A DNA stretch of 63,073 nt, the filler included, from Licmophora abbreviata (taxonomy: Eukaryota): assembly GCA_900291995.1 (NCBI GenBank). It is 15 parts of 15 records of this genome, joined end to end, with 100 filler letters (N's around TTAATTAATTAA, not from the genome) between each part and the next. Parts side by side here need not be neighbours in the genome. Positions count along the whole stretch, not along the records: positions 23,720 to 30,000 come from OLMU01001907.1; 14 more parts are not named here. One strand, written 5' to 3'. The notes below the pieces were generated by a model, which was not told where the DNA came from, did not search any database, and worked only from the letters and a program-made list of their open reading frames with translations. Within the stretch, counting starts at the first letter, position 1. Each line of letters begins with the position of its first letter. Below, piece by piece: positions 6,968-34,465 of the stretch. The position numbers and the translations under genes were made by a program.

Positions 6968-6982
6968 TCTCTTGCACCCATC

Positions 6983-7017
6983 GGGGTCGTCCCTGCAAAT
7001 GGGACGGCCCCCTTTTT
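6983..7017 (+). terminator. Stem-loop with U-tract after SBP gene
   Basis: GGGGTCGTCCC-tgcaaat-GGGACGGCCCC then CTTTTT. Confidence 0.7.
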
Positions 7018-7034
7018 GACAGGCTGACTTGCCC

Positions 7035-8085: not shown

Positions 8086-8088
8086 GCC

Positions 8089-16104: not shown

Positions 16105-16709
16105 TGCCCCGTTTCCGTCTGAGGGATTTGCGTGACCTATTCGTCGTGATCGTGCACCCGTCCGACAGCGACGGTCGGGCGATGCTTGAACAGATGGAGC
16201 GGATCGGTTGCAGGACCGAGCTGATCTGGCCTCCGAAGCGCCGTCTCCCACCGAATGCGGATGTCGTCTTTCTAGGGCTATTCTTCGACAGCCGGAAAGA
16301 CATCACCAACATGATCCGCCGCTCTGAAAAGCCGGGGCCGGCCATCATAGGTGTGGTCGATTACGAGAACCCTGCGATGCTTGAATTCGTGCTGGAGGTC
16401 GGGGCAATCGCCGTCACATCCAAACCCGTGCGCAGCTTCGGCATATTGACCAATCTCGTGGTCGGATATTCCAGCATGCTGCGCCAGTTCGAGGCACAGG
16501 AACGAATCACGCGGCTGGAAAAAAAGCTTCTGGGCAAGAAAGTCATCGCCAAGGCGAAGGCCATTCTCATCAATATGCATGGGTTCAGTGAAGAAGATGC
16601 CTATAAATTAATCAGAGAGCAGGCAATGTATAAGCGAACGACGATAGAAGACATGGCCCAAGCAATAATCAACGCAAATGAGCTTTTGTCCGGGCCTAGC
16701 CTGTCGTAA
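16104..16709 (+). CDS. amiR: AmiR-like ANTAR RNA-binding antiterminator
   Basis: Pseudo-receiver (HPSDSDG, IGCR..WP, DYENP) plus ANTAR KVIAKAKAIL..FSEEDAYKLIREQAM. Confidence 0.88.
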   Translation: MPRFRLRDLRDLFVVIVHPSDSDGRAMLEQMERIGCRTELIWPPKRRLPPNADVVFLGLFFDSRKDITNMIRRSEKPGPAIIGVVDYENPAMLEFVLEVGAIAVTSKPVRSFGILTNLVVGYSSMLRQFEAQERITRLEKKLLGKKVIAKAKAILINMHGFSEEDAYKLIREQAMYKRTTIEDMAQAIINANELLSGPSLS

Positions 16710-16876
16710 CGTAACCTCAGGACGTGGCCAAAGATGCCCACGCACTGACCAATCCACGCTGCCGCCGAACCATCTTGGTCGGTAAACGCGTAGGCAGGAA
16801 GGCGCAACGCTGCCCCTGACTGCAGGCCGATAAAGCTCGGTCACACTTTACAAAAAATAGCAGGAACACTGCACGC

Positions 16877-16891
16877 TGGTATGCCTGTCGC
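16877..16891 (+). promoter_or_regulatory. Candidate sigma54 (-24/-12) promoter for the transporter-urease operon
   Basis: TGGTATGCCTGTCGC with GG-N10-GC spacing; AT-rich tract just upstream. Confidence 0.4.
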
Positions 16892-17032
16892 GCATTCAGT
16901 CGAACAATGCCGTCATTCCTGCACTGCATGCGTCTGCGGACGCCATCCTTCAACTTCGGTCACACACCTTCTTGGCGTGCCGCCCGGTCGCATGCGCCCA
17001 TCCCAACACACTTCTTGATGGAGACGAAGATA

Positions 17033-18283
17033 ATGACGAATAATCGCCGGAATTTTCTAAAACAGTCAGCTGCTTACGGTGCGACGGCAGCGCTTGGACC
17101 AGGGCTGTGGGCCGCCGCGGCACGAGCGGAATCGGAAATTGATGTTGGTGTGCTCTTTTCGCTCACTGGCGGATTGTCGATTGTCGAGCAATCGCTGGCA
17201 GATGCGACGCTCATGGCAATCGACGAAATCAACGCCGCAGGCGGCGTGATGGGCAAAAAACTCAATCCGATCGTTGAAGATGGTGCCTCGGACGCCCGGA
17301 CATTCAACGAGCGGGCCTCGAAACTCGTTCTTCGCGATCAGGTTCCCACGGTGTTCGGCTGCTATACGTCGGCGTCGCGCAAGGCGGTGTTGCCGATTTT
17401 CGAGCGTCGCAACAACATGCTGTTCTACCCGACCTACTATGAAGGCTTCGAGTGCTCGAAGAACGTGGTCTACACCGGTGCGGTTCCGAACCAGCAGCTG
17501 TCGAACTATATCCCTTGGATCATCAACACCTTGGGCAAAAAGAAATTCTTCATCGTTGGGTCGAACTACATCTACCCGCGTGAGATGGCCAAAGTTTCCA
17601 AGATCCTGATCGAGCAGAATGGCGGGGAATGGGTTGCCGACGAGTATCTGGAGCTGGGGCACTCTGAATGGGGGGCCATGGTGTCCCGGATCAAGTCGTC
17701 GGGCTGCGATGTCGTGCTGTCCAACGTGGTCGGGGATTCCGTCATCGCCTTCTATCGTGAGTTCCGCAATCAGGGTCTGACCCACGACCAGTTGCCGATC
17801 TGTGCGACGGTGACCTCGGAAATCGAGATCGCAGCGATGGGCGCGGAAGTTGCGGCGGGCTCGTTCACGTCCTTCCCCTATTTCCAGGCCATCGATACGA
17901 CAGCGAACAACGATTTCGTGGAGCGCTACCGGCGGTTCGTGGATGACTCGTCTGCGGTGACCCAGCACGCGCTCGAATGTTCCTATTTCCAGGTCTACCT
18001 CTGGAAACAGGCCGTCGAGAAAGCCGGTGAGGTCACGCCGGATGCGATCAGGGAAGGCATCAAGGGACAGACCTTCGATGCGCCGAACGGCAAGGTCACC
18101 GTTGATGGTGAGAACCTGCACACATTCCTCACCCCGCGCATCGCGCAATGGGGCGGGGATGGCCAAGGCGAGATCATCGACGAATACCCCGAGCCGATCA
18201 AGCCGCTGCCCTATGTCGCCTATGGCGAAACGGATGGCGACCTCTTCTGCTCCGCTGCCGGGCTCGATTCGTCACGGCTGTAA
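17033..18283 (+). CDS. Urea/short-chain amide ABC substrate-binding protein (UrtA/FmdD-like), Tat signal
   Basis: RRNFLK twin-arginine signal; LFSLTG, EDGASD, FGCYTSASRKAVLP, GSNYIYPR. Confidence 0.9.
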   Translation: MTNNRRNFLKQSAAYGATAALGPGLWAAAARAESEIDVGVLFSLTGGLSIVEQSLADATLMAIDEINAAGGVMGKKLNPIVEDGASDARTFNERASKLVLRDQVPTVFGCYTSASRKAVLPIFERRNNMLFYPTYYEGFECSKNVVYTGAVPNQQLSNYIPWIINTLGKKKFFIVGSNYIYPREMAKVSKILIEQNGGEWVADEYLELGHSEWGAMVSRIKSSGCDVVLSNVVGDSVIAFYREFRNQGLTHDQLPICATVTSEIEIAAMGAEVAAGSFTSFPYFQAIDTTANNDFVERYRRFVDDSSAVTQHALECSYFQVYLWKQAVEKAGEVTPDAIREGIKGQTFDAPNGKVTVDGENLHTFLTPRIAQWGGDGQGEIIDEYPEPIKPLPYVAYGETDGDLFCSAAGLDSSRL

Positions 18284-18292
18284 GGCCAAAAG

Positions 18293-18317
18293 GGCGGGCA
18301 TCGACGCGGTGCCCGCC
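18293..18317 (+). other. Intercistronic stem-loop (probable mRNA stabiliser)
   Basis: GGCGGGCATCG-acg-CGGTGCCCGCC with no U-tract. Confidence 0.55.
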
Positions 18318-18343
18318 ACTCTCAAAGTCTTTCGGAGAGCGCA

Positions 18344-19237
18344 ATGTTTGAAGTCCTGTTCATCGGTCTGTCGCTGACATCTGTCCTGCTGCTTATCGCG
18401 TTGGGATTGTCCATAACCTACGGCGCCATGGGCGTCATCAACATGGCGCATGGCGAGTTGGTTATGATCGGCGCCTACACCGCGGTGTTGGCCGGTATCC
18501 ATCTTGGCTTCAATATCTTCCTGTCATTGCCCTTGGCTTTTGTGGTCGCCGCGCTTGTTGGGTTGCTGATCGAGCGGGTTGTCATTCGCAGGCTGTACGG
18601 GCGGATCATCGACACGCTGCTTGCCACCTGGGGTGTGGCGATCATCCTGCAGCAGCTTATCAGGCTGGAATTCGGGCTGACATTTTTCGGCATCAGTATC
18701 GAAGGGCTTGGCCCGGGTCTTCAGAACATGCGCGTGCCGACCTTCATGATGGAACCCTTCGATCTGATGGGTCTCTCCATCCAACCCTATCGGACCTTTA
18801 TCCTGTGCGTCACGATCCTGCTAACGGCGCTGACGTGGTACCTTGTGTATCGCACGGCCATCGGGGTGCAGGTGCGGGCGATCATGCGCAACCCCCAGAT
18901 GGCCGCGGCCTGCGGTATCGACGTGCGGCGCGTATCGGCCCTGACCTTCGCCTATGGATCGGGCCTCGCTGGCGTGGCCGGCGTTCTGCTGGCCGGGTTC
19001 CGCACGGTGATGCCCGAAATGGGGGCCACCGTTGTGGTTGACGGGTTCCTTGTCGTGGTGGTTGGCGGTGTAGGCAGCCTGTTGGGCACAATCCTGTCCT
19101 CCGCGCTTTTGGGGCAGATCAACGGGATCGTGTCGGTGTTTTCCAACGACATCATTGCGCGGGCCGTCGTATTTGGCGTGGTCATTGCCATCATCCTGTG
19201 GCGGCCGCGTGGTCTTTTCTCCTTCAAATCGAGGTAA
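18344..19237 (+). CDS. urtB: ABC permease UrtB-like
   Basis: GLSITYGAMGVINMAHGELVMIGAY, TLLATWG, FLVVVVGGVG. Confidence 0.8.
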   Translation: MFEVLFIGLSLTSVLLLIALGLSITYGAMGVINMAHGELVMIGAYTAVLAGIHLGFNIFLSLPLAFVVAALVGLLIERVVIRRLYGRIIDTLLATWGVAIILQQLIRLEFGLTFFGISIEGLGPGLQNMRVPTFMMEPFDLMGLSIQPYRTFILCVTILLTALTWYLVYRTAIGVQVRAIMRNPQMAAACGIDVRRVSALTFAYGSGLAGVAGVLLAGFRTVMPEMGATVVVDGFLVVVVGGVGSLLGTILSSALLGQINGIVSVFSNDIIARAVVFGVVIAIILWRPRGLFSFKSR

Positions 19238-19243
19238 GCGATC

Positions 19244-20392
19244 ATGTCCAACAGGATCTTCATCCTGGGTGATCGGGCTGTCTATGCAGCCTTCATCATC
19301 ATCGTCCTTGCGCTGCCGCTTCTGGTGGACGACGTCTTTTGGCTGAACCGGATCGCCAAATACCTTGTGTTCGGTATGCTCGGTCTCGCGATTGCGCTGT
19401 CCTGGGGCTATGCCGGCATTCTCAATCTGGGGCAGGGGCTGTTCTTTGGTCTTGGCGCCTACATGATCGCGATGTCGCTGAAGCTGCAAAGCTACACATC
19501 GCTGCAACAGGGCTCTGACAAGCCGATCCCCGATTTCATGTTGTGGAATGCCGAACCGGGCGCGCCGACCGATCTGTGCTGCATCACGCCCGGCTCGTGG
19601 TTGTGGATCCCCTTCCAGGCGCAATGGTTCGGGATGGCCATGGCGATTGTCGTTCCCGTCGTGTTTGCGTTGATCATCGGTTCCACCATCTTCCGTTTGC
19701 GGGTGTCCGGCGTCTATGTGGCGATCATCACGCTGGCGCTGGTGCTGCTGGCGCGGCTGTTGTTCATCGATCTGCAGCCGGTCACAAACGGGTTCAACGG
19801 CCTGACAGATCTTGGGTGGCTGACGATTGCGGGGATCGAATTCGATCCGTTCATGGTCGCGACCTATTATATCATCGCGGTTTCCGTCTGCGTGGTGTTG
19901 CTATTGTCACGCTGGCTGATCTCAACGCGCGCGGGGCTGATCCTGCAGTCGACGCGGGATGATCCCAATCGTTCGCGGTACCTTGGCTATGACGTGGCGT
20001 CCTACCAGGTCTTCTTCTTTACCGTCTCGGCAGGGATCGCCGGGTTTGCGGGGATGCTCTTTGTCATCGTATCGGAATTCGCGACGCCCACCTATTTCGA
20101 CATCGCCTTTTCGATCTCGATGGTGGTCTGGGCGGCGGTCGGGGGGCGCTCGTCGCTGATCGGCGCTGCTTTGGGAGCGATCCTGATCAATACGATCGAG
20201 GCCTCGGTGTCCGAAAGCGAGATGTTCCAGCAGGCGTGGCGACTGATCATCGGCATCGTGTTCGTCCTGGTGGTCCTGTTCATGCCGCGCGGTCTTGCCG
20301 GCTTGGCCCGTGACGCTCTGGCCCGCGTCGTCGCGTTGTCGCAGCGCTCGGGCGGCAAGGACAGCCAATCTTCCCACACCGCAGCCGAATAA
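19244..20392 (+). CDS. urtC: ABC permease UrtC-like
   Basis: WGYAGILNLGQGLFFGLGAY, PDFMLW, GVYVAIIT, AAVGGRSSL. Confidence 0.8.
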   Translation: MSNRIFILGDRAVYAAFIIIVLALPLLVDDVFWLNRIAKYLVFGMLGLAIALSWGYAGILNLGQGLFFGLGAYMIAMSLKLQSYTSLQQGSDKPIPDFMLWNAEPGAPTDLCCITPGSWLWIPFQAQWFGMAMAIVVPVVFALIIGSTIFRLRVSGVYVAIITLALVLLARLLFIDLQPVTNGFNGLTDLGWLTIAGIEFDPFMVATYYIIAVSVCVVLLLSRWLISTRAGLILQSTRDDPNRSRYLGYDVASYQVFFFTVSAGIAGFAGMLFVIVSEFATPTYFDIAFSISMVVWAAVGGRSSLIGAALGAILINTIEASVSESEMFQQAWRLIIGIVFVLVVLFMPRGLAGLARDALARVVALSQRSGGKDSQSSHTAAE

Positions 20393-20404
20393 GGGGGACA
20401 GCAC

Positions 20405-21286
20405 ATGAAAGCTGCATTGACGATCGAGGGGCTGGAGGTTGATTTCGGCGGCTTCAAGGCTGTGGATTCAATGACCACGGTGATAGATGACGGTGAATTG
20501 CGCGTCATCCTGGGCCCGAACGGCGCAGGCAAGACCACGCTGATGGATCTCATCAGCGGCAAGACGGCGGTGACGGGCGGGAAGGTTCACCTGTTTGGTC
20601 GTGACATCACCAATCGTCCTGAGCACGAGATCGCTCGGGCCGGGGTGGGGCGCAAGTTCCAGATCCCGTCGGTTTTCCGCGACCTGTCTGTTTTGCAAAA
20701 CCTTGAAGTGGCGGTCAGTCATGAGCCGCGTGTGTTTCGGAANNNNNNNNNNNNNNNNNNNNNNNNNNNNNNNNNNNNNNNNNNNNTTAATTAATTAANN
20801 NNNNNNNNNNNNNNNNNNNNNNNNNNNNNNNNNNNNNNNNNNGTGGCGGTCAGTCATGAGCCGCGTGTGTTTCGGAACCTGCGGCTTGGCATGAGCCGGG
20901 CCGACCGCAAGCGCATCGACGAGGTCATCGATCTGACCGGGCTGGGAGCGGTGCTCGACACTTTGGCAGGGGATCTCAGCCACGGTCAGATGCAATGGCT
21001 CGAACTCGGGATGCTCATCACGCAGCAATCGAAGGTGATCTTGCTGGATGAGCCGACGGCGGGCATGACGCAGGGCGAAACCTCGAAAACCGCCGATATC
21101 ATCCTGCGCTTGAAGGGCACGCATACCATCCTTGTCGTCGAGCATGACATGGCTTTCGTGCGCAAGATTGCCGAGAAAGTGACGGTCATGCATCTGGGCA
21201 AGTTGCTTGCGGAAGGGCCGATGCATGCGATCGAGGCAGACCCTGCCGTGCGCGACGCCTATCTTGGATCGGGAGGGTTGCATTGA
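20405..21286 (+). CDS. urtD: ABC ATP-binding UrtD-like (gap is a false join with a 35-bp overlap)
   Basis: GPNGAGKTT, GRKFQIPSVF, LSHGQMQWLELGM, LDEPTAGM. Confidence 0.85.
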
Positions 21287-21978
21287 TGCTGGCTCTACGC
21301 AACGTCAACAGCTTCTATGGCCGCAGTCAGGCATTGCATGACCTGAACTTCGATGCCCCAGAGGGTCAGATCGTGGCGATCCTCGGTCGTAACGGGGTCG
21401 GCAAAACAACGCTTTTGCGCACAATCATCGGGCTGACCGACCGCACCGAGGGGCAGATCGACCTGTCCGGGGTCGAGATCGGGTCCATGCCCACCTTCGC
21501 CAGGGCACGTGCGGGTATTGCCTATGTGCCGCAGGGCCGCATGATCATCCCTGATTTCAGCATTCGCGAGAATATCATGATGGGAGGGTTCGCCGCCTCC
21601 GGTCAGCGTCGTATTCCGGAGATCGTCGCGGAGCTGTTTCCTTACCTGATCGAGAACCTTGAACGCCCCGGCGGTGTGCTGTCCGGCGGCCAGCAACAGC
21701 AACTGGCCATTGCGCGCGCCTTGGCGTGCGATCCGAAGATCTTGCTCATGGATGAGCCGACGGAAGGTATCCAGCCCAATATCGTGCATCAGATCGAGGA
21801 TTGCATCATCCGACTGAACACGGAGCTTGGTCTGACGATCCTTCTGGTGGAGCAGAATGTCGATTTTGCAAAACGTGCGGCAAGCACATTCGCCATGATC
21901 GAGAACGGAACCAATGTCTCGGCAGGAAAAATCGAGGACCTGACCGAAGAGATCGTTTCGCGGCACATGGCGATCTGA
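21286..21978 (+). CDS. urtE: ABC ATP-binding UrtE-like
   Basis: GRNGVGKTT, YVPQGR, LSGGQQQQLAIARAL, DEPTEGIQP. Confidence 0.85.
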   Translation: MLALRNVNSFYGRSQALHDLNFDAPEGQIVAILGRNGVGKTTLLRTIIGLTDRTEGQIDLSGVEIGSMPTFARARAGIAYVPQGRMIIPDFSIRENIMMGGFAASGQRRIPEIVAELFPYLIENLERPGGVLSGGQQQQLAIARALACDPKILLMDEPTEGIQPNIVHQIEDCIIRLNTELGLTILLVEQNVDFAKRAASTFAMIENGTNVSAGKIEDLTEEIVSRHMAI

Positions 21979-22439
21979 TGGACATCTACACCTCCATACT
22001 CGGAACCGCGGACGCACCGGAGCATCACGATGCGCTGCACCATCTGGCGCATAAACACGCTGTGGATGTCGTGCGGCTGCCTCGCGCCGACCTAGCACGC
22101 CGTCGACTGCGGATCCGGACAGACGCAGGTCGCGAGGTCGCGATCGCCTTGCCCCGTGACCAGAAGCTGTTCGAGGGCGCTTTGCTGGCGCTGAAAGAGG
22201 ACAGCGCGCTGGTTGTGCGTGTCGAGACGGAGCGCTGGATCCGACTGGCGCCGCGCGACGCGGCGGCGGCACTCAGGCTTGGGTATTTCTGTGGCAACCT
22301 GCACTGGCGCGTCCGCTTTGAAGATGACGACCTCTGCGTTGCAGTGGAAACCGAAGAGCATGTCTATCTGGAGCGTCTGGAGGGCCTTCTGGAAGAGGGC
22401 GCCGTTGTTCTTGTGTCTGATAACGGAGAGGCGGGATGA
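21978..22439 (+). CDS. ureE: Urease accessory protein UreE-like
   Basis: RRRLRIRTDAGREVAIALPR and LGYFCGNLHW; first gene of the ure block. Confidence 0.8.
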   Translation: MDIYTSILGTADAPEHHDALHHLAHKHAVDVVRLPRADLARRRLRIRTDAGREVAIALPRDQKLFEGALLALKEDSALVVRVETERWIRLAPRDAAAALRLGYFCGNLHWRVRFEDDDLCVAVETEEHVYLERLEGLLEEGAVVLVSDNGEAG

Positions 22440-23122
22440 CGTCTAAGACTGGCACCGCCATTCGGCTGTTGCAGGTTTCGGATTCGGCCTTTCCCTCGGG
22501 TGCGTTCGCGTTTTCGTCCGGTTTGGAAACGCTAGTGAACGAGGGGCGCATACACGATGCAGCGGATATCCGTGCTGTTCTGACGGGTCAGGTTCTGCCC
22601 CGTTGGGCAAGTTTCGACCGCCCTTTCCTGCAGGCGGCCCATGCCGCCGAGGCGGACATCGCGCGATTGGCCGAGATCGACGAACGCTGTCATGCTCAAA
22701 ACAGTGCAGACCGTTTGGCCGAGGCGGCACGGCGTATCGGCAGGTCGCTTCTTTCGGTGCACGCCCGGATCGGGACACGGGGCACGGCAGAATATCGCGC
22801 GGCGACAAGTGGGCCGGATTTGCGGGATAGGACCGGGTATGAACCCGTGGTGCAGGGTCTGATCGGGTTCGGACTGGGTTTGAGTGCCGCTCAGACTGAA
22901 ATGAGCGCGCTGCACACTGTCACGATGGGGTTCGTTTCGGCCGCCATACGTTTGGGTCGGCTTGGCGCAATAGAGGCACAGGCCGTTCTGGCCGCTGCCG
23001 CGCCAGAGATGGCGGACATCCTTGATAGCCCTGTTCCGGCGCGCCCCGGAGCGTTTTCGCCCTTCGCAGAAATCGCGGCCCTGCGCCGAAGCACGGGCAA
23101 TGCCAACCTGTTCGCCACATGA
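22436..23122 (+). CDS. ureF: Urease accessory protein UreF
   Basis: LLQVSDSAFPSGAFAFSSGLE, SAAIRLG, C-terminal LFAT. Confidence 0.9.
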   Translation: MTSKTGTAIRLLQVSDSAFPSGAFAFSSGLETLVNEGRIHDAADIRAVLTGQVLPRWASFDRPFLQAAHAAEADIARLAEIDERCHAQNSADRLAEAARRIGRSLLSVHARIGTRGTAEYRAATSGPDLRDRTGYEPVVQGLIGFGLGLSAAQTEMSALHTVTMGFVSAAIRLGRLGAIEAQAVLAAAAPEMADILDSPVPARPGAFSPFAEIAALRRSTGNANLFAT

Positions 23123-23136
23123 TGAAAGTTTGATCC

Positions 23137-23799
23137 ATGCTGCTGACACCCACGGAACTTGAGCGATTGACGATCTTCACCGCAGCGGAACTTGCTCGCA
23201 AGCGACGTGCGCGCGGCCTTCGGCTGAATGCGCCGGAGGCGGTTGCGCTGATTGCCGATGAAATCCTGGAAGGTGCGCGCGACGGCTCGTCGGTCGCGGC
23301 CATGATCAGTTTCGGATCGACCGTGCTGAGCACCGACGATGTGATGCCCGGTGTCGCAGACCTTTTGCCGATGATCCAGGTGGAGGCGGTCTTTCCCGAT
23401 GGCACAAAGCTGGTCACGGTGCACGATCCGATCCGCCCCGGTGACTTGCCGCTTGACGATACGGTGGGCCGTCCGGGAGAAATTCGCGCAGCCGAGGGCG
23501 AGATCGAACTCAATGCGGGCCGTGAAAAGGCAACCTTGACGGTGAAGAACACCGGCGATCGTCCGGTTCAGGTTGGCAGCCACTATCACTTCTTCGAGAC
23601 GAACAAGGCGCTCGATTTCNNNNNNNNNNNNNNNNNNNNNNNNNNNNNNNNNNNNNNNNNNNNTTAATTAATTAANNNNNNNNNNNNNNNNNNNNNNNNN
23701 NNNNNNNNNNNNNNNNNNNGACTGAACAACCTGACGCGAGGTGAAGGCAAAGAGGCGGCTTTGGAGCGTGCGCGCGCCGCAGGATTCAAGGGAGCCTGA
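23137..23799 (+). CDS. ureAB: Fused urease gamma/beta subunit, interrupted by gap
   Basis: [35 protein letters not shown] continuing in frame into [21 protein letters not shown]; after the gap [21 protein letters not shown]. Confidence 0.9.
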
Positions 23800-23801
23800 C
23801 C

Positions 23802-25514
23802 ATGGTATCGATGACCCGAGCAGACTATGCCGCGATGTTTGGCCCGACCAAGGGCGACATGATCCGGCTTGCCGATACGGAATTATGGGCTGAGATCGAG
23901 CACGACTACACATCCTACGGCGATGAATGCTTGCATGGTGGCGGCAAGACCCTGCGCGATGGTCTGGGTATGGCCGTTGGCGTGACAAGTGCTCAGGGCG
24001 CCTTGGATATGCTGATCTGCAACGTGGTGGTGATCGATGCAGTGGCGGGTATCGTGAAGGGCGATATCGGCATCAAGGATGGTCGTATCGTGGCCATCGG
24101 CAAGGCCGGCAATCCCGATGTGATGAACGGTGTTGACCCGCGCCTGATTGTGGGGGCGAGCACCACGGTGCGTGACGCCGAGGGTCTTATCGCGACAGCG
24201 GGCGCGATTGACGTGCATGTGCATTTCGATAGTGCGCAGCTTGTGGAACACGCGATGTCTTCGGGCATTACGACCATGCTGGGCGGATCGCTTGGCCCGA
24301 TCACGGTGGGGATCGATTGCGGCGGTGTCTTCAATGTCGGCAAGATGATTCAGGCGTCCCAGGAATGGCCGATGAATTTCGGGTTTCTGGGTCGTGGCAA
24401 TGCGCATCGTCCCGAAGCGATGCATGAACAAATCCAAAATGGGGCGCTTGGCCTGAAGATCCATGAGGATTGGGGTGCGATGCCTGCCGCCATCGATACC
24501 TGCCTCAGCGTGGCCGACGAGTTGGATTTTCAGGTTCAGATCCACACGGACACGCTCAATGAAAGCGGATTTCTGGAAAATACGCTTGCGGCGATCGGCG
24601 ACCGTGTCATCCACATGTACCACACCGAAGGGGCCGGCGGCGGACATGCGCCGGACATCATCCGCGTCGCGGGTATCGCGAATTGCCTTCCGTCGTCTAC
24701 CAATCCGACCAATCCCTTTACCGTCAATACGTTCGACGAACATCTCGACATGACGATGGTGTGCCACCATCTGAACCCGTCGATCCCCGAGGACGTGGCT
24801 TTCGCCGAAAGCCGGATCCGTGCGCAGACCATCGCCGCCGAAGACATTCTGCACGACATGGGGGCGATCTCGATGCTGGGGTCGGACAGTCAGGGCATGG
24901 GGCGCATTCATGAGGTGATCTGCCGGACATGGCAGCTTGCATCCAAGATGCGGGTGCAACGGGGACGATTGCCCGAAGAAACGTCGGCGAAGGGAGATAA
25001 CCTCAGGATCAAGCGCTATATCGCCAAATACACGATCAATGCCGCGAGATGCTTTGGGATAGAGGCGCATGTCGGCTCGATAGAGCCCGGAAAGATGGCC
25101 GATATCGTCCTGTGGCGTCCCGGCTATTTCGGCATAAAGCCCGAACTTGTGGTCAAGGGAGGCTTTATCGCATGGGGTGCGATGGGCGACAGCGCCGCAT
25201 CGCTGATGACCTGCGAGCCACTTGTCATGCGACCGCAATGGGGCGCGTTCGGTCGTGCCGCCCCGACGCTTGGCGCCTGCTTTGTGAACCCGCGTGCCAT
25301 CGAGGGCGGACTGCAGGAGGAGCTGGACATCTGCAAGCCCTTGTTGCCGGCAGTCGGCTGTCGTGGCTTGAGCAAGCGGGACATGCTGCTGAACGACGCG
25401 CTTCCGGATATCCGCGTTGATCCGGCGACATTTGATGTCTTCGTTGATGGCGTTCTGGCGACCTGTGACCCCGCAACGGAGCTTCCCCTGACGCAAAGGT
25501 ACATGCTCCGATGA
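23802..25514 (+). CDS. ureC: Urease alpha subunit-like nickel amidohydrolase (divergent pocket)
   Basis: [52 protein letters not shown]. Confidence 0.92.
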
Positions 25515-26170
25515 CCGATAGCGCACCTATTCCCGAACGCCTTGCCACAGGACCCGCGCGCGTGGGTATCGGAGGGCCGGTCGGTTCGGGCAAGACGGCC
25601 CTGATCGAGGCGCTGATCCCGATTTTCCACGAGCGTGGCATCGAGGTGGCGGTCGTGACGAATGATCTTGTCACCAAGGAAGATGCCCGTCGCTTGCAAG
25701 CGGGTGGGCTGATCGATCCACAGCGGGTTGTGGCCGTGGAGGCGGGGGCCTGTCCGCATACCGTCATCCGGGAGGACCCTACGCTGAACATCGCCGCAGC
25801 CGACGATCTGGAGGCGCGGTTTCCCGATCTGGATCTGATCCTGATCGAAAGCGGCGGGGACAATCTTGCGTCGACCTTCTCGCTCGATCTGGTGGACTGG
25901 TGGATGTTCGTCATCGATGTGGGGCAGGGGGATGACATCCCGCGCAAGCGCGGGCCGGGGATCATGCTGTGCGATCTGCTGGTCATCAACAAGCTGGACA
26001 TCGCCCCGCATGTCTTCGTCGATGCCGCGTCGATCCTGTCGGAAGCGCGCGATGTGCGTGCGGGAAAACCTGTCATAGGCTGTCGTTGCAAAGGCGCGCA
26101 GACAGAGGGCTTGACCGATATCGCCGACGCGATCGTGCGCGACCTTCTGTTTCGGGATGTTGTGACATGA
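25511..26170 (+). CDS. ureG: Urease accessory GTPase UreG
   Basis: [25 protein letters not shown]. Confidence 0.93.
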
Positions 26171-26994
26171 ACGTGGCGCACGTCCCGTCCCGGGCACGCA
26201 GTGTGCACGGCGAGTTGACCTTTGCCTGCGTCTCGGGGCGGACGCATCTGATGCGCCAGCATACGCCGCATCCATTTCACATCACGCGCCCGTTTCGTCA
26301 TCCCTGCGACCCTCAAGGAATGGTCACGCTTTACCTGCAGAGCTCTTCCGGGGGGGTATATGGGGACGATGATCTGGCGTTGTCTGTCGGTCTGAAGCCC
26401 GGCTCAGCGGTTCACCTGACCACGCAGGCATCAACCGTGGTGCATGATGCGCGGGGGCGCGACGGGGCCAGCCAGACCATATCACTGGACGTGGGCGCGG
26501 GCGCTTTGCTGGAATACGTGCCGGACCCGGCGATCATGATGGCTGGATCACGGCTCAAGACCCGCATCCATGCAAATCTGGCCGACGGCGCGAAGGTCCT
26601 GTTGGCTGACGCGCAGCTTTGCCATGACCCCGAAGACAATGGCCGACCTTTCGATGCGTTGGAGTGCGAGGTTGCCATTACGGCTGCGGGCAAAACGCTT
26701 TTGCTGGACCGTTTCGAATTGCAGGGTGCCGACTGGTTGACCCGCACCGGGGGCTATCGCTGTGCCGGGATGATGCTTGTCGCTGGCGATACGCGGCCCG
26801 GCGCAGCGATGCTCGATGCGGCAGCCAGCGTTCCGGGCGTCTATGCGGGTCTGTCGAACCTCGCAGATCGCGAGGTGACCATAGTGCGCTTTCTTGCGGA
26901 GGACGGTGTCGCTCTCAGTCGTGCGCTCAAGGCCATTTGGATGGCCGCACGCGAGGCAATGACCGGAGACATTCCCGTGGCACGCCGCAAATAG
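26167..26994 (+). CDS. ureD: Urease accessory protein UreD/UreH
   Basis: [26 protein letters not shown]. Confidence 0.88.
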
Positions 26995-27100
26995 CGGTGG
27001 CCGACTTTTATCGCTGCGGGAAACGGTCCCGTGGTTAAACCAGTGCTGGCTTTGTTTTTGCGCTTCGCCGGCACGCATGTGACGAAAGAGGAGAGACGAG

Positions 27101-28144
27101 ATGTATCATGGTGATATCGGAAGCAGCAATGACACGGTCGGGGTCGCCGTCGTCAACTACAAGATGCCACGAATGCATACCAAAGCAGAAGTGATCGAAA
27201 ACTGCCACAAGATCGCCGACATGCTCAAGGGGATGAAAAAGGGATTGCCCGGTATGGATCTGGCGATTTTCCCTGAATATTCGACCCAAGGGATCATGTA
27301 CGACGAAACCGAGATGTACGAGACGGCTGCGGCCATCCCAGGGGAAGAGACCGAAATATTCGCGGCTGCCTGTCGCGAAGCGAATGTCTGGGCTGTGTTC
27401 TCGCTCACCGGGGAACGCCACGAGGAGCACCCCAAGAAGGCGCCGTACAATACGCTCATCCTGATGAACAACAAGGGCGAGATCGTACAGAAATACCGCA
27501 AGATCATGCCTTGGGTGCCGATAGAGGGCTGGTATCCGGGCAACTGCACCTATGTCAGCGAAGGCCCCAAGGGCATGAAGATCAGCCTGATTATCTGCGA
27601 TGATGGCAACTACCCAGAGATCTGGCGGGATTGCGCCATGAAGGGCGCGGAACTGATCATTCGGTGTCAGGGCTACATGTATCCGGCAAAGGATCAGCAG
27701 ATTGTCATGGCCAAGGCCATGGCTTGGGCCAACAACAGCTATGTGGCTGTCGCCAATGCCACGGGCTTTGACGGCGTCTACAGCTATTTTGGTCATTCCA
27801 GCATCATCGGCTTCGACGGGCGCACGCTCGGTGAGTGCGGCACAGAGGAAATGGGCATCCAGTTTGCTCAGCTCTCCGTGTCCATGATCCGCGACGCGCG
27901 CCGCACGATGCAATCCAACAACCATTTGTTCAAGCTGGTTCACCGTGGCTACACCGGCATGATCAACTCGGGTGATGGGGATAAGGGCGCGGCAGAACTG
28001 CCCTATGATTTCTACCGCAAGTGGGTCGAAGATCCCGAAGGCACACGTGAAATGGTCGAGGCGATGACCCGCCCCACGGTGGGGACATCTGAATCGCCCA
28101 TCGAAGGCCTGCCAAACGAGAGCACGGACAAAGCGCATCGCTGA
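27101..28144 (+). CDS. amiE: Aliphatic amidase (nitrilase superfamily)
   Basis: [22 protein letters not shown]; Glu-Lys-Cys triad in [33 protein letters not shown]. Confidence 0.95.
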
Positions 28145-28157
28145 CCTTCGTTCCCAG

Positions 28158-28179
28158 ATCCGGGGGTTTGGCCCCGGAT
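28158..28179 (+). other. Intercistronic stem-loop after amiE
   Basis: ATCCGGGG-gtttgg-CCCCGGAT with no U-tract. Confidence 0.5.
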
Positions 28180-28225
28180 GCGCTGGCGGCCCGTTGCCGC
28201 CAGCGACTTCACCGATGGAGAGATC

Positions 28226-29035
28226 ATGACAACCAGCCCTCTGCTTGATGCCTATCGTTTGACGGAAGAACCCAAATGGTACCCGACGGGAGAAGAGGTT
28301 GCGCAATTTACTGCGGCTTATTCCGTGCGGCTACCTGTCATGCTGAAAGGGCCGACAGGCTGTGGGAAGACGCGGTTTGTCGAACATATGGCGTCGCGAC
28401 TGGATCGACCGCTGGTCACCGTGTCCTGCCATGAGGACATGACAGCTTCCGATCTTGTCGGACGTTATCTGCTGGGACCGGATGGCACGATTTGGCAAGA
28501 TGGCCCTTTGACGCTTGCCGTCCGTCATGGCGGGATCTGTTATCTCGATGAGATTGTGGAAGCCCGGCAGGATACGACTGTCATCATTCACGCGCTGACG
28601 GATGACAGACGCATTCTGCCACTTGAAAAGAAGGGCGAGTTGGTACGGGCGCATCCTGATTTTCAACTCGTGATTTCATACAACCCTGGCTATCAATCCG
28701 TGCTCAAAGATCTCAAGGAATCCACCAAGCAGCGGTTCTGTGCCCTGGATTTTGACTACCCTGCAACCGAGATCGAGACCTCGATCGTTGCCGCAGAAGC
28801 AGGTATCCCCAGTGCGACCGCTGCGGTTCTGGTCAAGATTGGCGAGAAAAGTCGCAATCTGCGTGGGCAGGGCCTGAGCGAGGGGGCTTCTACGCGGATG
28901 CTGATCCATACCGGGCGGTTGATGCAGCAGGGCCTGACACTGCCTGAGGCATGTCGCTTGGCCATGATAACCCCCATAACCGACGACCCCGACATGCGCG
29001 CCGCACTCGAGGCTGCGGTCGATGCCTGTAGCTGA
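28226..29035 (+). CDS. CbbQ/NirQ/NorQ-family MoxR AAA+ ATPase
   Basis: LKGPTGCGKTRFVEHMA, CHEDMTASDLVGRYL, CYLDEIVEARQDT, SYNPGYQ, LKESTKQRF, STRML. Confidence 0.93.
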   Translation: MTTSPLLDAYRLTEEPKWYPTGEEVAQFTAAYSVRLPVMLKGPTGCGKTRFVEHMASRLDRPLVTVSCHEDMTASDLVGRYLLGPDGTIWQDGPLTLAVRHGGICYLDEIVEARQDTTVIIHALTDDRRILPLEKKGELVRAHPDFQLVISYNPGYQSVLKDLKESTKQRFCALDFDYPATEIETSIVAAEAGIPSATAAVLVKIGEKSRNLRGQGLSEGASTRMLIHTGRLMQQGLTLPEACRLAMITPITDDPDMRAALEAAVDACS

Positions 29036-31361
29036 CATGGTTGCCGCGTCGCCCAATACCCTGGTTCAGGCGGCAACGCGGTCCGCGTTTCCCGGTCATA
29101 CGCTGACGGAGTTCCTGTCGGCTCATGATCGTCTGACCAAGGCGGGATATGGGGTTGCAGTGCCACGCAGCTTCCTGCAGGCGGCGCCAGATGTCGCCAG
29201 GCTTGTCGGCACGGATCAGGCGCTGGCCCTTGCTCCGGCGGCGTCGCGCATCGCGATACGAAGCAGCCCCCGGACGGCGGCGGTCTTCCTTGACCTGACG
29301 GTGCCGATGTCTCGCAGGCTTGGAGAGCCGCAGGCGTTTTCCAGTTGGGTCCAGCTTGTCATTTCGCTTGTCAACGCCGCGCCGGAATCGGTGGATCCGC
29401 TGCTTTCAAGAGCCGAGATGCTGGATGAGCGTCTGGGACTGGACGGCTTGAAAGCTTGGGTGCAATCGGGTTTGCGGTTGGGCGGAGGCGACGAACGCAA
29501 GCGACAGCAGTACTTTTCGCTGGACATGATCGAAGCGCAAAGACTTCTGGAACGCTATGCCGGCGAAGAGACATTCCAGAGCCTCGAGAGTGAATTGCGC
29601 GCAGGTCACAGGGCGCTTTGGGGACGCATGCCGCCGCTCCGCGAAGCGCTTCCGTTGGGCAAGGGGCAAGCCGAATTGCGTGCAAGCTTCGGTGGCGGCG
29701 TTGTGCAGCTTCCTGCCAGCTTCAGTGGATACCGCGGGCGTGAAAGGTCGGTCTACAAGGCCGCTCTTGCTCATATCGGGGCGCATATGGCCTATGGCGG
29801 TTCAAGCTTTCACGTTGGGCAACTCAAGCCTTTGCAGATCGCTGTCGTATCCCTGATTGAAGATGCACGGGTCGAATATCTGGCCATGCGTGAAATGCCG
29901 GGGCTTTCGCGGCTCTGGCTGCCTTTTCATGATGTCTCACCCGACGGGATGGCGACGGCACCATCGCTTTTTGCGCGGCTGGCTCGCGCCTTGCTGGATC
30001 NNNNNNNNNNNNNNNNNNNNNNNNNNNNNNNNNNNNNNNNNNNNTTAATTAATTAANNNNNNNNNNNNNNNNNNNNNNNNNNNNNNNNNNNNNNNNNNNN
30101 CCATGGCTGGGTGCAAAAGGGCGTGACCATGTTTACCGAGGGCATTGAGCAGATCGGTAACCCCGCCTTGTCGCGCCATATCGGAAATATCCTTGGAAAC
30201 GATCTTGGCCAGACACGGGTTCAGTTCAATGCCCGCAACTATGTCGTGCAGCCTGCTTACCGCGATGACAATCTTGGTCTGTGGGATTTGCCGCCGGAAC
30301 CAAACGCGCCCCCGCAGCAACACCAGTTCGAGATAAACACCTTCGACCGGCGTGAAACCGAGACGCAGGATAGCCCGCAAAAGCGTAAACAGGGGCAGTC
30401 CGATCAAGCGCATGATAGCGGTGTCGAAGCAGTCACATCGGCCCGGCTGGAGCCCAGTACCGGTCGTGTGGTCGCGCACTTGCCGGAATATGACTTCACG
30501 GCAGGTATCGAACGCCCCGATTGGGTCACGGTGAAGGAATACGAGCCCGGCCCCGGCGATCCGCTCTTCTGGCACAAGCTGAAGGAGCGTCAGGCCGTCT
30601 TGCTCGCGCGTATCGGTGAGATGGTCCGTGCCGCGTCTCTTGGACGGGCGCGTCGGCTGAAGCGGCAGGCCGAAGGCGGGGCGCTGGACCTTGATGCCAC
30701 GATCGAGGCCGCCATCAACCTGAGATCCAGGCAGACGCCCGATCTGAACGTCTATGAGGGTGTGTCACGGCCCGAAAGGTCCATCGCGGTCCACCTGTTG
30801 CTCGATATATCCCAGTCGACCGAGGACCCTGTTGAAGCAGCCGGGGCGAGTGTGATCAGCCTCTTGCGCGAGGCGTCGGCCGTGCTTGCCCATGCGATGG
30901 ACAGGTTGGGCGATCCGCTTGCGATCACGGCCTTCTCATCGGACGGGCGCGATGATCTGCGCGTGGTCCACGTCAAGCGGTTCGAGGACGAGTTGACCCC
31001 GCTCACGGGCATGGCGCTCTCGGGGCTGCGCGCCGGATACTCGACACGGATCGGAGCAGCCATTCGCTATGCGGGCGCGAAACTTGCCAAGATTCCGTGC
31101 CATCGGCGGCTGGTTCTTGTCGTGACGGATGGAGAGCCTTCTGACGTGGATGTGTCTGACCCTGACTATCTCGCGATGGATGCCAAGCGCGCGGTGCAGT
31201 CGCTCAACGCGTCCGGGATCGATGTCTTCTGCATAGCTTTGGGACACGCAGCCGGCCAACGGCATGGCGAAATCTTTTCGCGACGTGGATTCCTTCAGTT
31301 GGACCGATTGGACGCGCTGCCCACGAAACTTCCTGCACTTTATCTGAGGATGGCCAGATAA
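29022..31361 (+). CDS. CbbO/NorD-like von Willebrand A protein, interrupted by gap
   Basis: IEDARVE, LPEYD, LDLDATI, MIDAS LLDISQST, YSTRIGAAIR, VTDGEPSDVD; overlaps the AAA+ gene. Confidence 0.9.
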
Positions 31362-31427
31362 GCGCATCTGGCAATTGAAAACCAACCTTGGCTGCTTCTG
31401 GGCCGACAATGGGAAAGGAGACACTTC

Positions 31428-32414
31428 ATGAACTGGCTGGAACATTCTGTCATGGCCCGAAAAGGCGTGGCAAAGGGAAAGGCGGGTGAACACCACGAGA
31501 TCACTATCGCTGACCAGGGTACGTTTCACTATGTCTATGGCCCTTTCGTCGACCCTGTCCTGAAAGTGTCGCCGGGGGCAGTGGTTTCGGTAGAGACCCA
31601 TGACGCTTTCGAGGGCAAGATCACCAGCGAAAGCGACAAGCCTTCCGAACGGTTGAATTTTCCGTATCTCAATCCGCAGACCGGCCCGATCCATGTGGAA
31701 GGTGCGGAAAAGGGGGATGCTCTTGCGGTACGGATCATATCCATCAAGCCGCGTGGTCCGCAGCCAGTTGGTACAACCTGTCTCATTCCGGAATTCGGTG
31801 GTCTGGTGGGAACCGGCAACACCGCGATGTTGAACGCGCCGCTGGATGAAGTGGTCAGAAAGATCCGCGTCGACGAAACCGGCATTCACTGGTCCGACAG
31901 ATTGGTGTTGCCCTATGAGCCGTTTATCGGAACCATTGGCACCTCGCCCGAGATCGAGGCGATTTCCTCGCTTCAGCCGGACTATTACGGTGGCAACATG
32001 GATATGCCGGATGTTGCCCCGGGTGCGATCATCTATTTGCCGGTCAATCGCGAGGGTGGATATCTTTACCTTGGCGATTGTCATGCAATTCAAGGGGATG
32101 GGGAGCTTTGCGGAGTCGCGCTTGAAATTCCCGCGACGGTGGAATTGCAGATCGACCTGATAAAGGGGCATGGCAACAGCTGGCCGCAGCTGGAAACCGA
32201 GGACATGATGATGTTCATCGGCTCCGCCCGTCCGCTGGAGGATGCCACACGCATTGCTTATCGTGAGCTCGTTCGTTGGCTGGCGCTGGAGACCGATCAG
32301 AGCGAAGTCGACGCCTATATGCTTCTGACAATGTGCGGGAAGGTTCGTCTGGGGAACATGGTGGACCCGAAATACAGCGTCGGGGCGTCAATCGCGAAGC
32401 GCTATCTGAAATAG
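31428..32414 (+). CDS. Acetamidase/formamidase family protein
   Basis: ETHDAF, NPQTGPIHVEGAEKGD, GGNMD, GDCHAIQGDGELCGVALE. Confidence 0.9.
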   Translation: MNWLEHSVMARKGVAKGKAGEHHEITIADQGTFHYVYGPFVDPVLKVSPGAVVSVETHDAFEGKITSESDKPSERLNFPYLNPQTGPIHVEGAEKGDALAVRIISIKPRGPQPVGTTCLIPEFGGLVGTGNTAMLNAPLDEVVRKIRVDETGIHWSDRLVLPYEPFIGTIGTSPEIEAISSLQPDYYGGNMDMPDVAPGAIIYLPVNREGGYLYLGDCHAIQGDGELCGVALEIPATVELQIDLIKGHGNSWPQLETEDMMMFIGSARPLEDATRIAYRELVRWLALETDQSEVDAYMLLTMCGKVRLGNMVDPKYSVGASIAKRYLK

Positions 32415-32545
32415 CATTCTCAATCAGGGTTGCGGACCGTGGACCTTGGATTGAAGACCCCGCCTTCGTCCGGACGTATCAGAGCAAGCCTCTTAAGAGC
32501 CCCACCGCACAGCTTCCTGAAATTCTCAACATGAAAGGACATATC

Positions 32546-34082
32546 ATGACCGACGACACAACAGTTCCGGCAGGCGCCGCATCCATCGAGCTTGCCAACC
32601 TCACAGTCAAAGGCATTCAAGAGGGCCTTCGCAGCGGTGCATTCACCGCAGAGGCGCTCACCCTGGCATCACTTGCGCAAGTCGAGGCAACGAACCCGAA
32701 ATACAACGCGATCATCTTTCACAACAAAGACGCTGCGCTGGAAACCGCACGAGATGTGGATCGTCGCATCGCGGCAGGCGAGGATCTTGGGCCGCTGGCA
32801 GGGGTGCCTGTCGTGGTGAAAGACCCCATGGATATGGTTGGTTTCCCGACGACGGCGGGATGGCGACTGTTGTATTCGGGAGCCGGAGGNNNNNNNNNNN
32901 NNNNNNNNNNNNNNNNNNNNNNNNNNNNNNNNNTTAATTAATTAANNNNNNNNNNNNNNNNNNNNNNNNNNNNNNNNNNNNNNNNNNNNTGACAGTTGGG
33001 CCGGACCGACACTGAATGTTGCCATAGAAGACCGTGTTCCCGGCGGCTCCAGTGCAGGAACAGCCGCAGCGGTTGCCGCAAAGATGTGTGTGCTCGGTCT
33101 GGCAGAGGAAACAGGCGGGTCCATTCAGAACCCGGCCTCGGCGCAAGGTTTGGTGGGAATAAAGCCGACAATTGGTCTGGTGCCGAATGCCGGTGTCGTG
33201 CCCTTGTCCGCAAATCGTGACGTGGTCGGTCCGATTGCGCGCACAGTCACCGATGCGGCCATATGCCTTGATATTCTTGCAGGCTACAGCAGCGAAGATC
33301 CCAAAACACTGGCGAGCGTGGGGAAAATTCCTGCCAAAGGCTATACCGCAGCGCTTTCTAAAGACGCGCTGAAAGGCAAGCGGATCGGATTGTACGGCTC
33401 AGGTTGGCGCAATCAGCCGCTTTGCCCTGAAACAACGGCACTCTATGAACAGGCTCAAGAAGAGCTGACAGCCGCCGGCGCCATTCTGGTCGAAGATCCG
33501 TTTGCCGGGAGCGGCTTTGCGGATTTGCGTCAACCCACGGCGCCCACACCGAATTTCGACGGACGGGGACTGGAGTCGATCGCGTACGATCTGCAGTCTT
33601 ACCTGCGGCGCCTCGGTCCTGATGCCGCGCTCAAGACTTTTGCTGAATTTGCCGAAGCGACTTCTGAAGAGAACCCCTTTGGGCCAGAGGGCGTGTTGTA
33701 TTTCCTCAATTCGCTCCCGGATTTCCAGGCGGCTATGCTTGACCCGACCGCGCCGCCGGCCATGCCGGAGTTCATAGCCCTGAAGGCGGCTTATCTGGAT
33801 ATCCTCGAGACTGTCTTCCGCGAGCATAGCCTAGATTCCCTCATCTTTCCGCAAATGCGTCAAGAATTGCCGGGCCTGCATTCCGGAGAGACGATCCAGG
33901 AAACGACCGTCGGAGAGCTAAATATTGCGGGTCTTCCAGGGGTGACAGTGCCTGCCGGTTTCTATGCATCCTCGGCGCCTTTTGAACTGATCTTCCTCGG
34001 TCGGTTGTGGGACGAGGCGGAATTGCTGGCTCAGGCGTTTGCGTATGAACAGGCGGCAGGGGCTGGCGGGTCGATGAAATAG
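32546..34082 (+). CDS. Amidase-signature (Ser-cisSer-Lys) amidase, interrupted by gap
   Basis: GPLAGVPVVVKD, PGGSSAGTA, EETGGSIQNPAS, GIKPTIG. Confidence 0.88.
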
Positions 34083-34110
34083 TCCAAGAGCTTGTAGGAT
34101 TTGCATACTT

Positions 34111-34158
34111 AAGGCTGCTCCGCGACGAAAGACCGTCTCGCTCGCGTAGCAGCCTTTT
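34111..34158 (+). terminator. Probable intrinsic terminator closing the amide/urease locus
   Basis: AAGGCTGCT...AGCAGCCTT inverted repeat ending in TTTT, about 30 nt after the last stop codon. Confidence 0.55.
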
Positions 34159-34223
34159 CGTCTGATCTGGACCCGGTAGGGACCAGCGGGTGCTTGGTGC
34201 TGAAGGCCATTTTCATGTGCGCC

Positions 34224-34465
34224 TCATGTGTGCAATGAGTCGCCGGAGAAAGGCGGCATCAGCCGCACCACAGGGCCCATCGCCTGCAACCGCCGTGCCC
34301 AGTGATGCGCCCCGGAGCAGGCCTCAATGCCAATCAAACATCTGAGTCGACCTTCGAAAAATGAGAGAACTGGTTCCGCCCGAGCTGGCGCCGCAATATG
34401 GTTCTGCCGTCGGTGTCGACGCCATGGACCTGAATAACGTTCTTTGCGAGATCGACGCCGGTTGG
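34224..34465 (-). mobile_element. IS110-family transposase remnant (frameshifted N-terminus)
   Basis: GVDLAKNVIQVHGVD in one frame and IGIEACSGAHHWARRLQAMG..VRLMPP in another. Confidence 0.8.

Follow-up and report, generated by a model that had tools for sequence, protein, structure and literature searches.

The window analysed here is a stretch of 63,073 nucleotides (linkers included) from the draft assembly GCA_900291995.1, deposited as Licmophora abbreviata, and our subject is a ureC gene at positions 23802–25514 on its + strand, which lies in a urease cassette of the order ureE-F-AB-C-G-D. From comparative sequence analysis we conclude that this gene probably encodes the catalytic subunit of a genuine nickel urease of a distinct lineage, a 'second-type' urease. 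Judged by motifs and alignments, the predicted protein has most of the features that mark membership of the urease family and lacks one, the conserved loop that holds urea (GTxATTCTPG together with SDSQAMG, bearing Ala170 and Ala366).

UreC retains the nickel ligands and catalytic residues of ureases

The open reading frame is stop-free and encodes 570 amino acids. It scores 827.6 bits on TIGR01792 (urease_alph; equivalog cut-off 680) and 870.6 bits on NF009686, matches Pfam Urease_alpha and Amidohydro_1, and aligns end to end with the jack bean, pigeon pea and Klebsiella aerogenes ureases (E value ~1e-203 to 1e-205), with 57–60 % identity to crystallised ureases over the full length, enough to settle its fold. 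The original prediction that all nickel ligands and catalytic residues are present was borne out by a script that located each of them: H139 and H141 (HVH), K219, H248 (IHTD), H274 (YHTEG) and D362, the last within SDSQGMG (residues 361–367, nt 24882–24902). K219 shares the segment GLKIHEDWG (217–225) with H221 and D223, the flap residues C321-H322-H323 are present, and R338 lies in SRIR; the catalytic and flap set of ureases (His222, Asp224, Cys322, His323 and Arg339 in Sporosarcina pasteurii numbering) corresponds to H221, D223, C321, H322 and R338.

Relatives were gathered by scanning one genome per species, which gave 584 confirmed matches; the best 80 were kept, a sample that leans towards close relatives. 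MVCHHL was found in 78 of these 80, the other two being N-terminally cut fragments outside the slice searched by the script. Together these features support the assignment of the predicted protein to the urease-family nickel enzymes, with a full set of metal-binding and catalytic residues.

The urea-contacting loops are remodelled

Changes in three motifs that are near-invariant in ureases had been predicted, and their positions proved right, that of the first (residues 161–175, nt 24282–24326) exactly; the second is SDSQGMG and the third covers residues 462–473. Aligned to the jack bean, pigeon pea and K. aerogenes ureases, the window protein is three residues shorter in the canonical GGGTGPaaGTxATTCTP loop and has Ile-Asp for Thr-Thr in the substrate loop (TVGIDC-GG). 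Both pocket alanines are replaced, G170 and G365 being the equivalents of Ala170 and Ala366 of S. pasteurii, and glycine occupies both sites in 78/78 aligned rows of the window's clade, as against alanine in 31/31 canonical rows. In the third motif, GDPNASIPTPQP of the canonical enzymes is replaced by a different 12-residue motif.

Altogether, 46 columns discriminate the 78 clade rows from the 31 canonical rows. The segment directly after the HxH nickel ligands reads HVHFDSAQL where canonical ureases have HxH-ICPQQ, and further differences include HEDWGAM for HEDWGAT, DMTMVCHH for DMLMVCHH, RAQT for RxET and RPQWG for RPMFG. Invariant columns number 277 of 570 in the clade, compared with 210 in the canonical rows. 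As predicted, the urea-contacting loops are remodelled, and the three changed motifs are conserved in 80/80 of the best relatives, near-fixed with few alternative residues (e.g. [CS], [NHG] and [EQ]); judged by this conservation, the altered loops are a feature of the clade and not the product of drift.

The structural premise of the original prediction, that alanine backbone carbonyls line the urea site, is found in PMC7433671. There, the urea nitrogen bound to Ni(2) is held by the backbone oxygens of Ala170 and Ala366, the distal one by the oxygens of Ala366 and Gly280, and the C-beta of Ala366 touches the Ni(2)-bound water. As read from the alignment, glycine at both sites keeps the backbone carbonyls, removes two methyl groups and adds flexibility.

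The variant forms a separate clade within a non-canonical UreC group

The 78 full-length clade rows were monophyletic with a support of 99 in a FastTree phylogeny of 129 rows, and the clade received a support of 92 by SH-like approximate likelihood ratio test (SH-aLRT) in an IQ-TREE phylogeny of 44 rows. In neither tree did the protein nest among canonical ureases, the outcome that the original prediction had named as telling against it; instead, the clade falls within a larger non-canonical UreC group (support 97–99) that is sister to the canonical ureases and separate from both their bacterial and their eukaryotic members. Reference rows were called canonical from their motifs and from alignments to solved ureases, and the trees were built without the PDB sequences themselves.

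Besides the window's clade, the larger group comprises the UreC-like paralogues L123–L127 and seven representatives of 50 %-identity clusters (P0126, P0127, P0130–P0133 and P0148). All of its members have the loop deletion and glycine at the Ala366 position. The flap Cys-His-His survives only in the window's clade; the other members have lost it and show AHR, SHL, CHN, CHM, AHA, CHL and others in its place. These flap-less UreC-like proteins are, from their motifs, probably not ureases. They belong to a wider UreC-like radiation, much more divergent than the window's clade, and some genomes (G045, G085 and G344) carry two or three flap-less copies. A library of 50 %-identity representatives failed as a means of delimiting the clade, lumping it with canonical ureases (best representative 58–59 %); the representatives served as diverse outgroup rows.

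UreC is 75–95 % identical across Rhodobacterales, Hyphomicrobiales, Rhodospirillales and some Gammaproteobacteria, whereas the accompanying UreE, UreF and UreD are mostly just ~30–60 % identical, with higher values in the nearest relatives. A full island of the alphaproteobacterial type, with 85 % UreC identity, was also found in a record labelled as Bacillota (Oceanobacillus sp. HTM 045, L004); contamination of that assembly by a foreign contig, or a wrong label on it, is the probable explanation.

Gene neighbourhood in relatives

The cassette ureE-F-AB-C-G-D was complete in 59 of the 62 loci with enough flanking sequence. Neighbours were counted in the 47 loci flanked on each side by at least 7 kb: the aliphatic amidase gene amiE was present in 18, amiC in 23, amiR in 24, a close Urt-like binding protein in 21, an AAA ATPase in 16 and a VWA protein in 17, and 27 loci had amiE or amiC plus amiR. 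The AmiC sensor, the AmiR antiterminator and amiE, which form one co-directional string in the window, recur as such a string in relatives in four gene orders; linkage of amiE in at least four orders argues for selection on co-regulation.

Other partners vary. About ten loci in all (e.g. L042 and L048) have a NitT/TauT-type ATP-binding cassette (ABC) importer upstream, and Methylobacterium bullatum (L018) has a lone UrtA downstream of the cassette, scoring 535 bits against the equivalog cut-off of 492.75. In five of the 80 loci, a small and a large N,N-dimethylformamidase-like gene (PF20254, 292 bits) stand between urtABCDE and ureE (L010 2880–5848, L035 2840–5816, L044 2959–5926, L050 993–3926 and L080 2301–5176). 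The pair is 75–94 % identical among its hosts (Hoeflea, Ancylobacter, Xanthobacter, Planktomarina and a metagenome-assembled genome) and is followed by a gene for an unknown protein of 373–428 amino acids; a literature search found no paper linking dimethylformamidase-like genes with urease. Among more distant members (73–76 % identity), isochorismatase-like, CN-hydrolase, cytosine-deaminase-like and amidase-signature amidase genes are neighbours. Two of these distant loci (L130 7634–12115 and L135 7717–14517) have a cassette cut down to ureF-ureAB-ureC, with no ureE, ureG or ureD nearby, followed by a cytosine-deaminase-like amidohydrolase and, in L135, also by an isochorismatase-family protein and an amidase-signature amidase. 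Importers, regulators and partner hydrolases thus differ from locus to locus while the pocket motifs are invariant in 80/80.

Co-occurrence with canonical urease and amiE

Among 25 hand-picked carrier genomes, 21 also hold a canonical ureC, two have the variant alone and two have it together with other non-canonical copies; the canonical copies score 942–1013 bits on TIGR01792, compared with 802–843 bits for clade members. When 401 alphaproteobacterial genomes of at least 90 % completeness were drawn evenly, 113 had a ureC-type match and 14 the variant (at least 73 % identity; one partial). A second copy, of the canonical class, accompanies the variant in seven of these 14. The search detected no canonical ureC in the other seven, of which three show a single match (G198, G118 and G334), one a single partial match (G131), one just broken pieces of a second copy (G437) and two nothing but further, non-canonical copies (G234 and G085).

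amiE is present in 15 of the 25 carriers, at a distance of no more than 10 kb from the variant ureC in nine of them; elsewhere it adjoins the canonical ureC (two Methylobacterium genomes, G042 and G043) or stands apart from both (four genomes). In ten of the 25 it was not found, and one close relative (G004) has amiE and no ureC. The co-occurrence that the original prediction put up for testing, with both amiE and a canonical urease, stands for the urease in most of the hand-picked carriers and half of those evenly drawn, and breaks down for amiE in ten of 25.

Two seawater metatranscriptome runs from a single study contained contigs ~95 % alike, one of 15.9 kb spanning 23720–30000 and one of 1 kb bridging ureD and amiE; two further RNA runs yielded small pieces only. 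Such RNA-library contigs prove neither transcription nor a single transcript, and we draw no conclusion about expression from them.

A probable second-lineage urease and the competing explanations

We infer that urea is the substrate of the enzyme, that it is loaded with nickel and that AmiC/AmiR control extends to the whole string. In the mechanism that we propose, fused UreAB and UreC would make up the enzyme, and its own UreE, UreF, UreG and UreD would load two nickel ions onto H139, H141, carbamylated K219, H248, H274 and D362. The urea oxygen would bind Ni1 with the help of H221 and a urea nitrogen would bind Ni2, with the G170 and G365 backbone carbonyls holding the substrate and the flap H322 and R338 aiding its cleavage. 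The island, presumably under AmiC/AmiR control, with its ABC importer of urea/short-amide type, AmiE with AAA/VWA helpers and two further amidases, could then act as a single inducible unit that converts imported urea and small amides to ammonia.

A genuine urease is supported by the flap Cys-His-His, kept here and lost in the other branches of the non-canonical group, and by the dedicated ureE, ureF, ureAB, ureG and ureD set, including the CPH motif of UreG. A constant enzyme with changing partners would also fit an intermediate common to all contexts, such as urea. That urea is the constant substrate is mildly favoured because the pocket is invariant despite varying importers, regulators and partner hydrolases, because a true UrtA can adjoin the cassette (Methylobacterium), because half of the even-draw carriers have no other candidate urease, and because urea-yielding purine-catabolism genes abut the island here, an adjacency that is not conserved. 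Gregoriou and Brown are said to have described urea in 1979 as an active-site-directed inhibitor of the aliphatic amidase of Pseudomonas aeruginosa; such inhibition of AmiE would give a reason for pairing an amide/urea importer and AmiE with a urease.

Several observations weigh against a urease in the strict sense. Both alanines whose carbonyls hold the urea nitrogens are glycine, and with them goes the Ala366 C-beta that normally touches the Ni(2)-bound position; the loop of the first alanine is three residues shorter and has a new aspartate (D172); and three more segments beside metal ligands are changed. All of these changes are clade-fixed, as would be expected if the pocket were tuned to a substrate besides or instead of urea. 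Coexistence with a canonical urease in 21 of the 25 hand-picked carriers and seven of the 14 even-draw ones invites functional divergence. In addition, AmiC/AmiR regulators are of a type that senses acetamide, the score of the binding protein in the island falls under the UrtA equivalog cut-off, the purine-catabolism neighbours are missing upstream of amiC in the nearest genome, and the PDB matches hold no structure from the clade or the wider non-canonical group. A literature search, whose scope did not extend to subscription journals and supplements, found no biochemical assay of any member of the lineage.

These points would be accommodated by a shifted or broadened substrate range, in which the protein is a nickel-dependent amidohydrolase for a urea analogue or small amide (N-methylurea or another N-substituted urea, hydroxyurea, semicarbazide, formamide, acetamide or an acylurea) and urea is at best a side substrate. 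We regard this as possible, though clearly the less probable view. The clade-fixed replacement of both carbonyl donors, the three-residue deletion, the new aspartate and the changes flanking HxH all argue for it, as do the frequent coexistence with canonical urease, the recurrent linkage to AmiC/AmiR and amiE in four gene orders (amiE in 18/47 loci, amiE or amiC plus amiR in 27/47) and the other amide hydrolases that adjoin, among them the dimethylformamidase-like genes in methylotrophs. Loss of the flap histidine in the sister branches suggests that the non-canonical group as a whole has diversified. Canonical ureases themselves, according to what Dixon and colleagues reportedly found in 1980, slowly turn over formamide, acetamide and N-methylurea. 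Loss of the Ala366 C-beta would free space at the Ni(2)-bound position, given the contacts described in PMC7433671. Yet glycine retains the binding backbone carbonyls, and the residues of urea chemistry are all kept (H221, D223, a glycine at the Gly280 position, C321, H322 and R338). Furthermore, no single alternative substrate suits all contexts, a true UrtA adjoins the cassette in Methylobacterium, and the variant is the sole urease-like gene in several near-complete genomes. The bulkier substrate envisaged in the original prediction found no support, since partner genes vary while the pocket is invariant, and the same holds for its proposal that an acylurea is cleaved to an amide for the adjacent AmiE: with amiE missing from 10/25 carriers and within 10 kb in only 9/25, an obligate route of this kind is unlikely, and the comparative data, taken as sequence evidence, speak against that specific pathway. 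We also put forward, as a rather doubtful suggestion, that the lineage may be an undescribed sister family of urease, made up of nickel-dependent amidohydrolases in which the pocket on the Ni(2) side favours a small amide or a urea analogue over urea; its substrates would then, as part of the same tentative proposal, be N-methylated or otherwise N-substituted ureas or formamide-type compounds, with further activities in the branches that lack the flap histidine.

It is very improbable that the gene is a decaying or silent duplicate like Brucella ure2. Several window genes look split and the nearest genome, G001, has a canonical urease, but the splits are contig linkers and the block is intact in G001. 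UreC is also the best-conserved gene of the cassette (75–95 % identity across orders, no stops in 80 loci, 277/570 columns invariant), and frameshifts or relaxed constraint in most clade members were not seen; contigs ~95 % alike occur in seawater RNA libraries, although transcription is not thereby shown. Equally remote, in our estimation, is an enzyme that uses another metal and acts as a nickel-independent back-up, as the iron urease UreA2B2 of Helicobacter mustelae would suggest. That enzyme is not known to need UreE, UreF, UreG or UreD or to have accessory genes. Here, too, a second urease paralogue has substitutions near the metal site, and 3qga (UreB2) is among the PDB matches (645 bits); against this, 3qga is no closer a match than the nickel ureases, a full UreE/F/G/D nickel-insertion set accompanies the variant, and the CPH metal motif of UreG is kept.

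Comparison with known systems

The predicted enzyme resembles the canonical nickel ureases of K. aerogenes (UreABC, 1ejw), S. pasteurii (1s3t) and jack bean (3la4) in its alpha-chain identity (57–60 %), its nickel ligands and carbamylated-lysine position, its flap Cys-His, arginine and aspartate, and its UreDEFG-dependent layout. It differs in forming a separate clade, in the Ala170/Ala366 to Gly replacements, the shorter loop, HFDSAQL for H-ICPQQ and the 462–473 motif, and in having fused gamma and beta subunits and the order ureE-F-AB-C-G-D. Genomes in which a second urease set accompanies a canonical one are also known, with H. mustelae UreA2B2 (3qga) and Brucella ure2 as examples, although the gene order of ure2 differs from that of the window's cassette, and ure2 is reported to be without urease activity (PMC2868824). 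Unlike these, the lineage described here occurs widely among Alpha- and Gammaproteobacteria and has its own accessory genes. The P. aeruginosa amiEBCRS operon and related amiCR-ABC-amiE operons share AmiC, the ANTAR protein AmiR, amiE and an ABC importer with the island, as well as CbbQ/NorQ-type AAA and NorD-like VWA proteins, a gene pair of the same kind adjoining amiE in PMC13209695; the window differs in having a complete urease cassette between importer and amiE.

Urease is a textbook enzyme with a near-invariant active site, and here is a widespread, conserved lineage in which both urea-holding alanines and their loop are changed, one that often accompanies a canonical urease and is embedded in amide-catabolic islands. 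Should the enzyme prove to be a true urease, it would reveal which of the 'invariant' pocket features a urease can do without, and it would represent a self-contained, horizontally spread urea module of bacteria that live in the sea, in soda lakes or with sponges and of methylotrophs. Otherwise, a new nickel-enzyme activity lies hidden beneath 'urease subunit alpha' annotations that number in the thousands, and surveys of urea cycling that count ureC come out too high; were the lineage indeed a sister family, the 'urease' annotations in ~3–4 % of alphaproteobacterial genomes would be wrong in substrate.

Genes and boundaries of the island

The window consists of draft contigs chained by 14 linkers with stops in all six frames (N44-TTAATTAATTAA-N44, e.g. 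3720–3819, 13000–13099 and 23620–23719), so that gene adjacency across any linker is no firmer than scaffolding. Linkers at 20743–20842, 23620–23719, 30001–30100 and 32890–32989 fall within the region of interest, and it is because of them that urtD appears split and ureAB, an unknown gene and an amidase gene appear truncated. In the nearest genome, G001, the region 14737–34242 is collinear and unbroken on one contig (C15) at 93–96 % nucleotide identity, with ureC 99 % identical at the protein level and ureAB an intact gene of 227 codons. Similarity starts and stops sharply at 14737 and 34242 and the flanks are unrelated; because the match is confined to these limits, the ~19.5-kb block behaves as a unit. 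The block from amiC to the last amidase, composed of amiC-amiR, a Urt-like importer, the ure cassette and amiE, all on the + strand, looks like a transferable island on this comparison.

The island (all coordinates + strand) opens with an amiC-like gene for a cytoplasmic ligand sensor and negative regulator (14935–16104; Pfam Peripla_BP_5, 414 bits; 327.8 bits to P. aeruginosa AmiC, 1pea), followed by amiR, encoding an ANTAR antiterminator (16104–16709; AmiR_N, 125 bits, and ANTAR, 55 bits). No Rfam match was found in 14000–35000, and scans for an ANTAR leader and for a terminator gave nothing convincing; hairpins are predicted at 16700–16909, none with a clear A1/G4 hexaloop and with z-scores of just −1.5 to −1.9. 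A UrtA/FmdD-like periplasmic binding protein with a twin-arginine translocation signal (16907–18283) scores 414 bits on TIGR03407, under the cut-off of 492.75, and its PDB matches rank 8tg1 (352.7 bits) above UrtA 7s6e (280) and AmiC (218). We considered the position of AmiC Thr106 as a discriminator between amide and urea for this protein, since it is Ile/Val in the PDB UrtA structures, and dropped it because threonine also occupies this position in the bona fide Methylobacterium UrtA (535 bits) and in every other binding protein next to the cassette. The importer genes urtB, urtC, urtD and urtE (18344–21978) include matches of 333, 366 and 296 bits to TIGR03409, TIGR03408 and TIGR03410, all over cut-off, and the two pieces of urtD on either side of the linker match positions 2–111 and 100–241 of TIGR03411; the four genes are uninterrupted in G001.

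The cassette itself begins with ureE for the nickel chaperone (21981–22439; NF009752, 167.6 bits, cut-off 162), whose start was placed at the onset of the profile match and whose product carries a GNLHW motif besides an N-terminal stretch rich in histidine. Then come ureF (22436–23122; Pfam UreF, 87 bits) and ureAB for the fused gamma/beta subunit (23137–23799; NF009671, 255.9 bits, cut-off 243), in which the linker hides 41 residues. ureC is followed by ureG for the GTPase (25511–26170; TIGR00101, 219.5 bits, cut-off 204), with a P-loop GSGKT as well as CPH, and by ureD (26173–26994; Pfam UreD, 125.5 bits), for which the start given is a presumed one.

Downstream lies amiE, the aliphatic amidase gene (27101–28144; NF009802, 702.9 bits, cut-off 427), and then a trio at 28178–31361 that accompanies amiE in relatives: a CbbQ/NorQ-type, amiB-like AAA ATPase (Pfam AAA_5 and CbbQ_C), a middle gene that spans linker 30001–30100 and had no family match in a profile search, and a VWA protein. 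An acetamidase/formamidase-family protein follows (31428–32414; FmdA_AmdA, 123 bits; NF045496 just 73.8 bits against a cut-off of 500). The amidase-signature amidase at 33084–34082 (Pfam Amidase, 117 bits, profile positions 142–274) has lost its N-terminus at linker 32890–32989; with it, the block common to the window and G001 ends on the right (~34242).

Other features of the window

Directly upstream of amiC, on the same contig, are a C-terminal fragment of the allantoinase PuuE (13144–13746, +) and a gene for (S)-ureidoglycine aminohydrolase (13756–14565, +; 525 bits). A gene for ureidoglycolate lyase, which releases urea, lies on the preceding contig (11761–12654, −; 258.1 bits, just under the cut-off of 260; NF009932, 170 bits, above 160). 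Purine-catabolism genes were rejected as conserved context, being found neither upstream of amiC in G001 nor in the 80 loci.

Further to the left, a gene on the − strand (1525–3651) encodes a 708-amino-acid protein with DUF642, RTX calcium-binding repeats and a Hint_2 domain. An Opp/Nik-type ABC importer adjoins a GntR/FCD regulator at 5243–11058 (+); its SBP_bac_5 protein scores ~92–93 bits on nickel nikA models, far under their cut-offs, and by this family assignment the importer could carry nickel or peptides.

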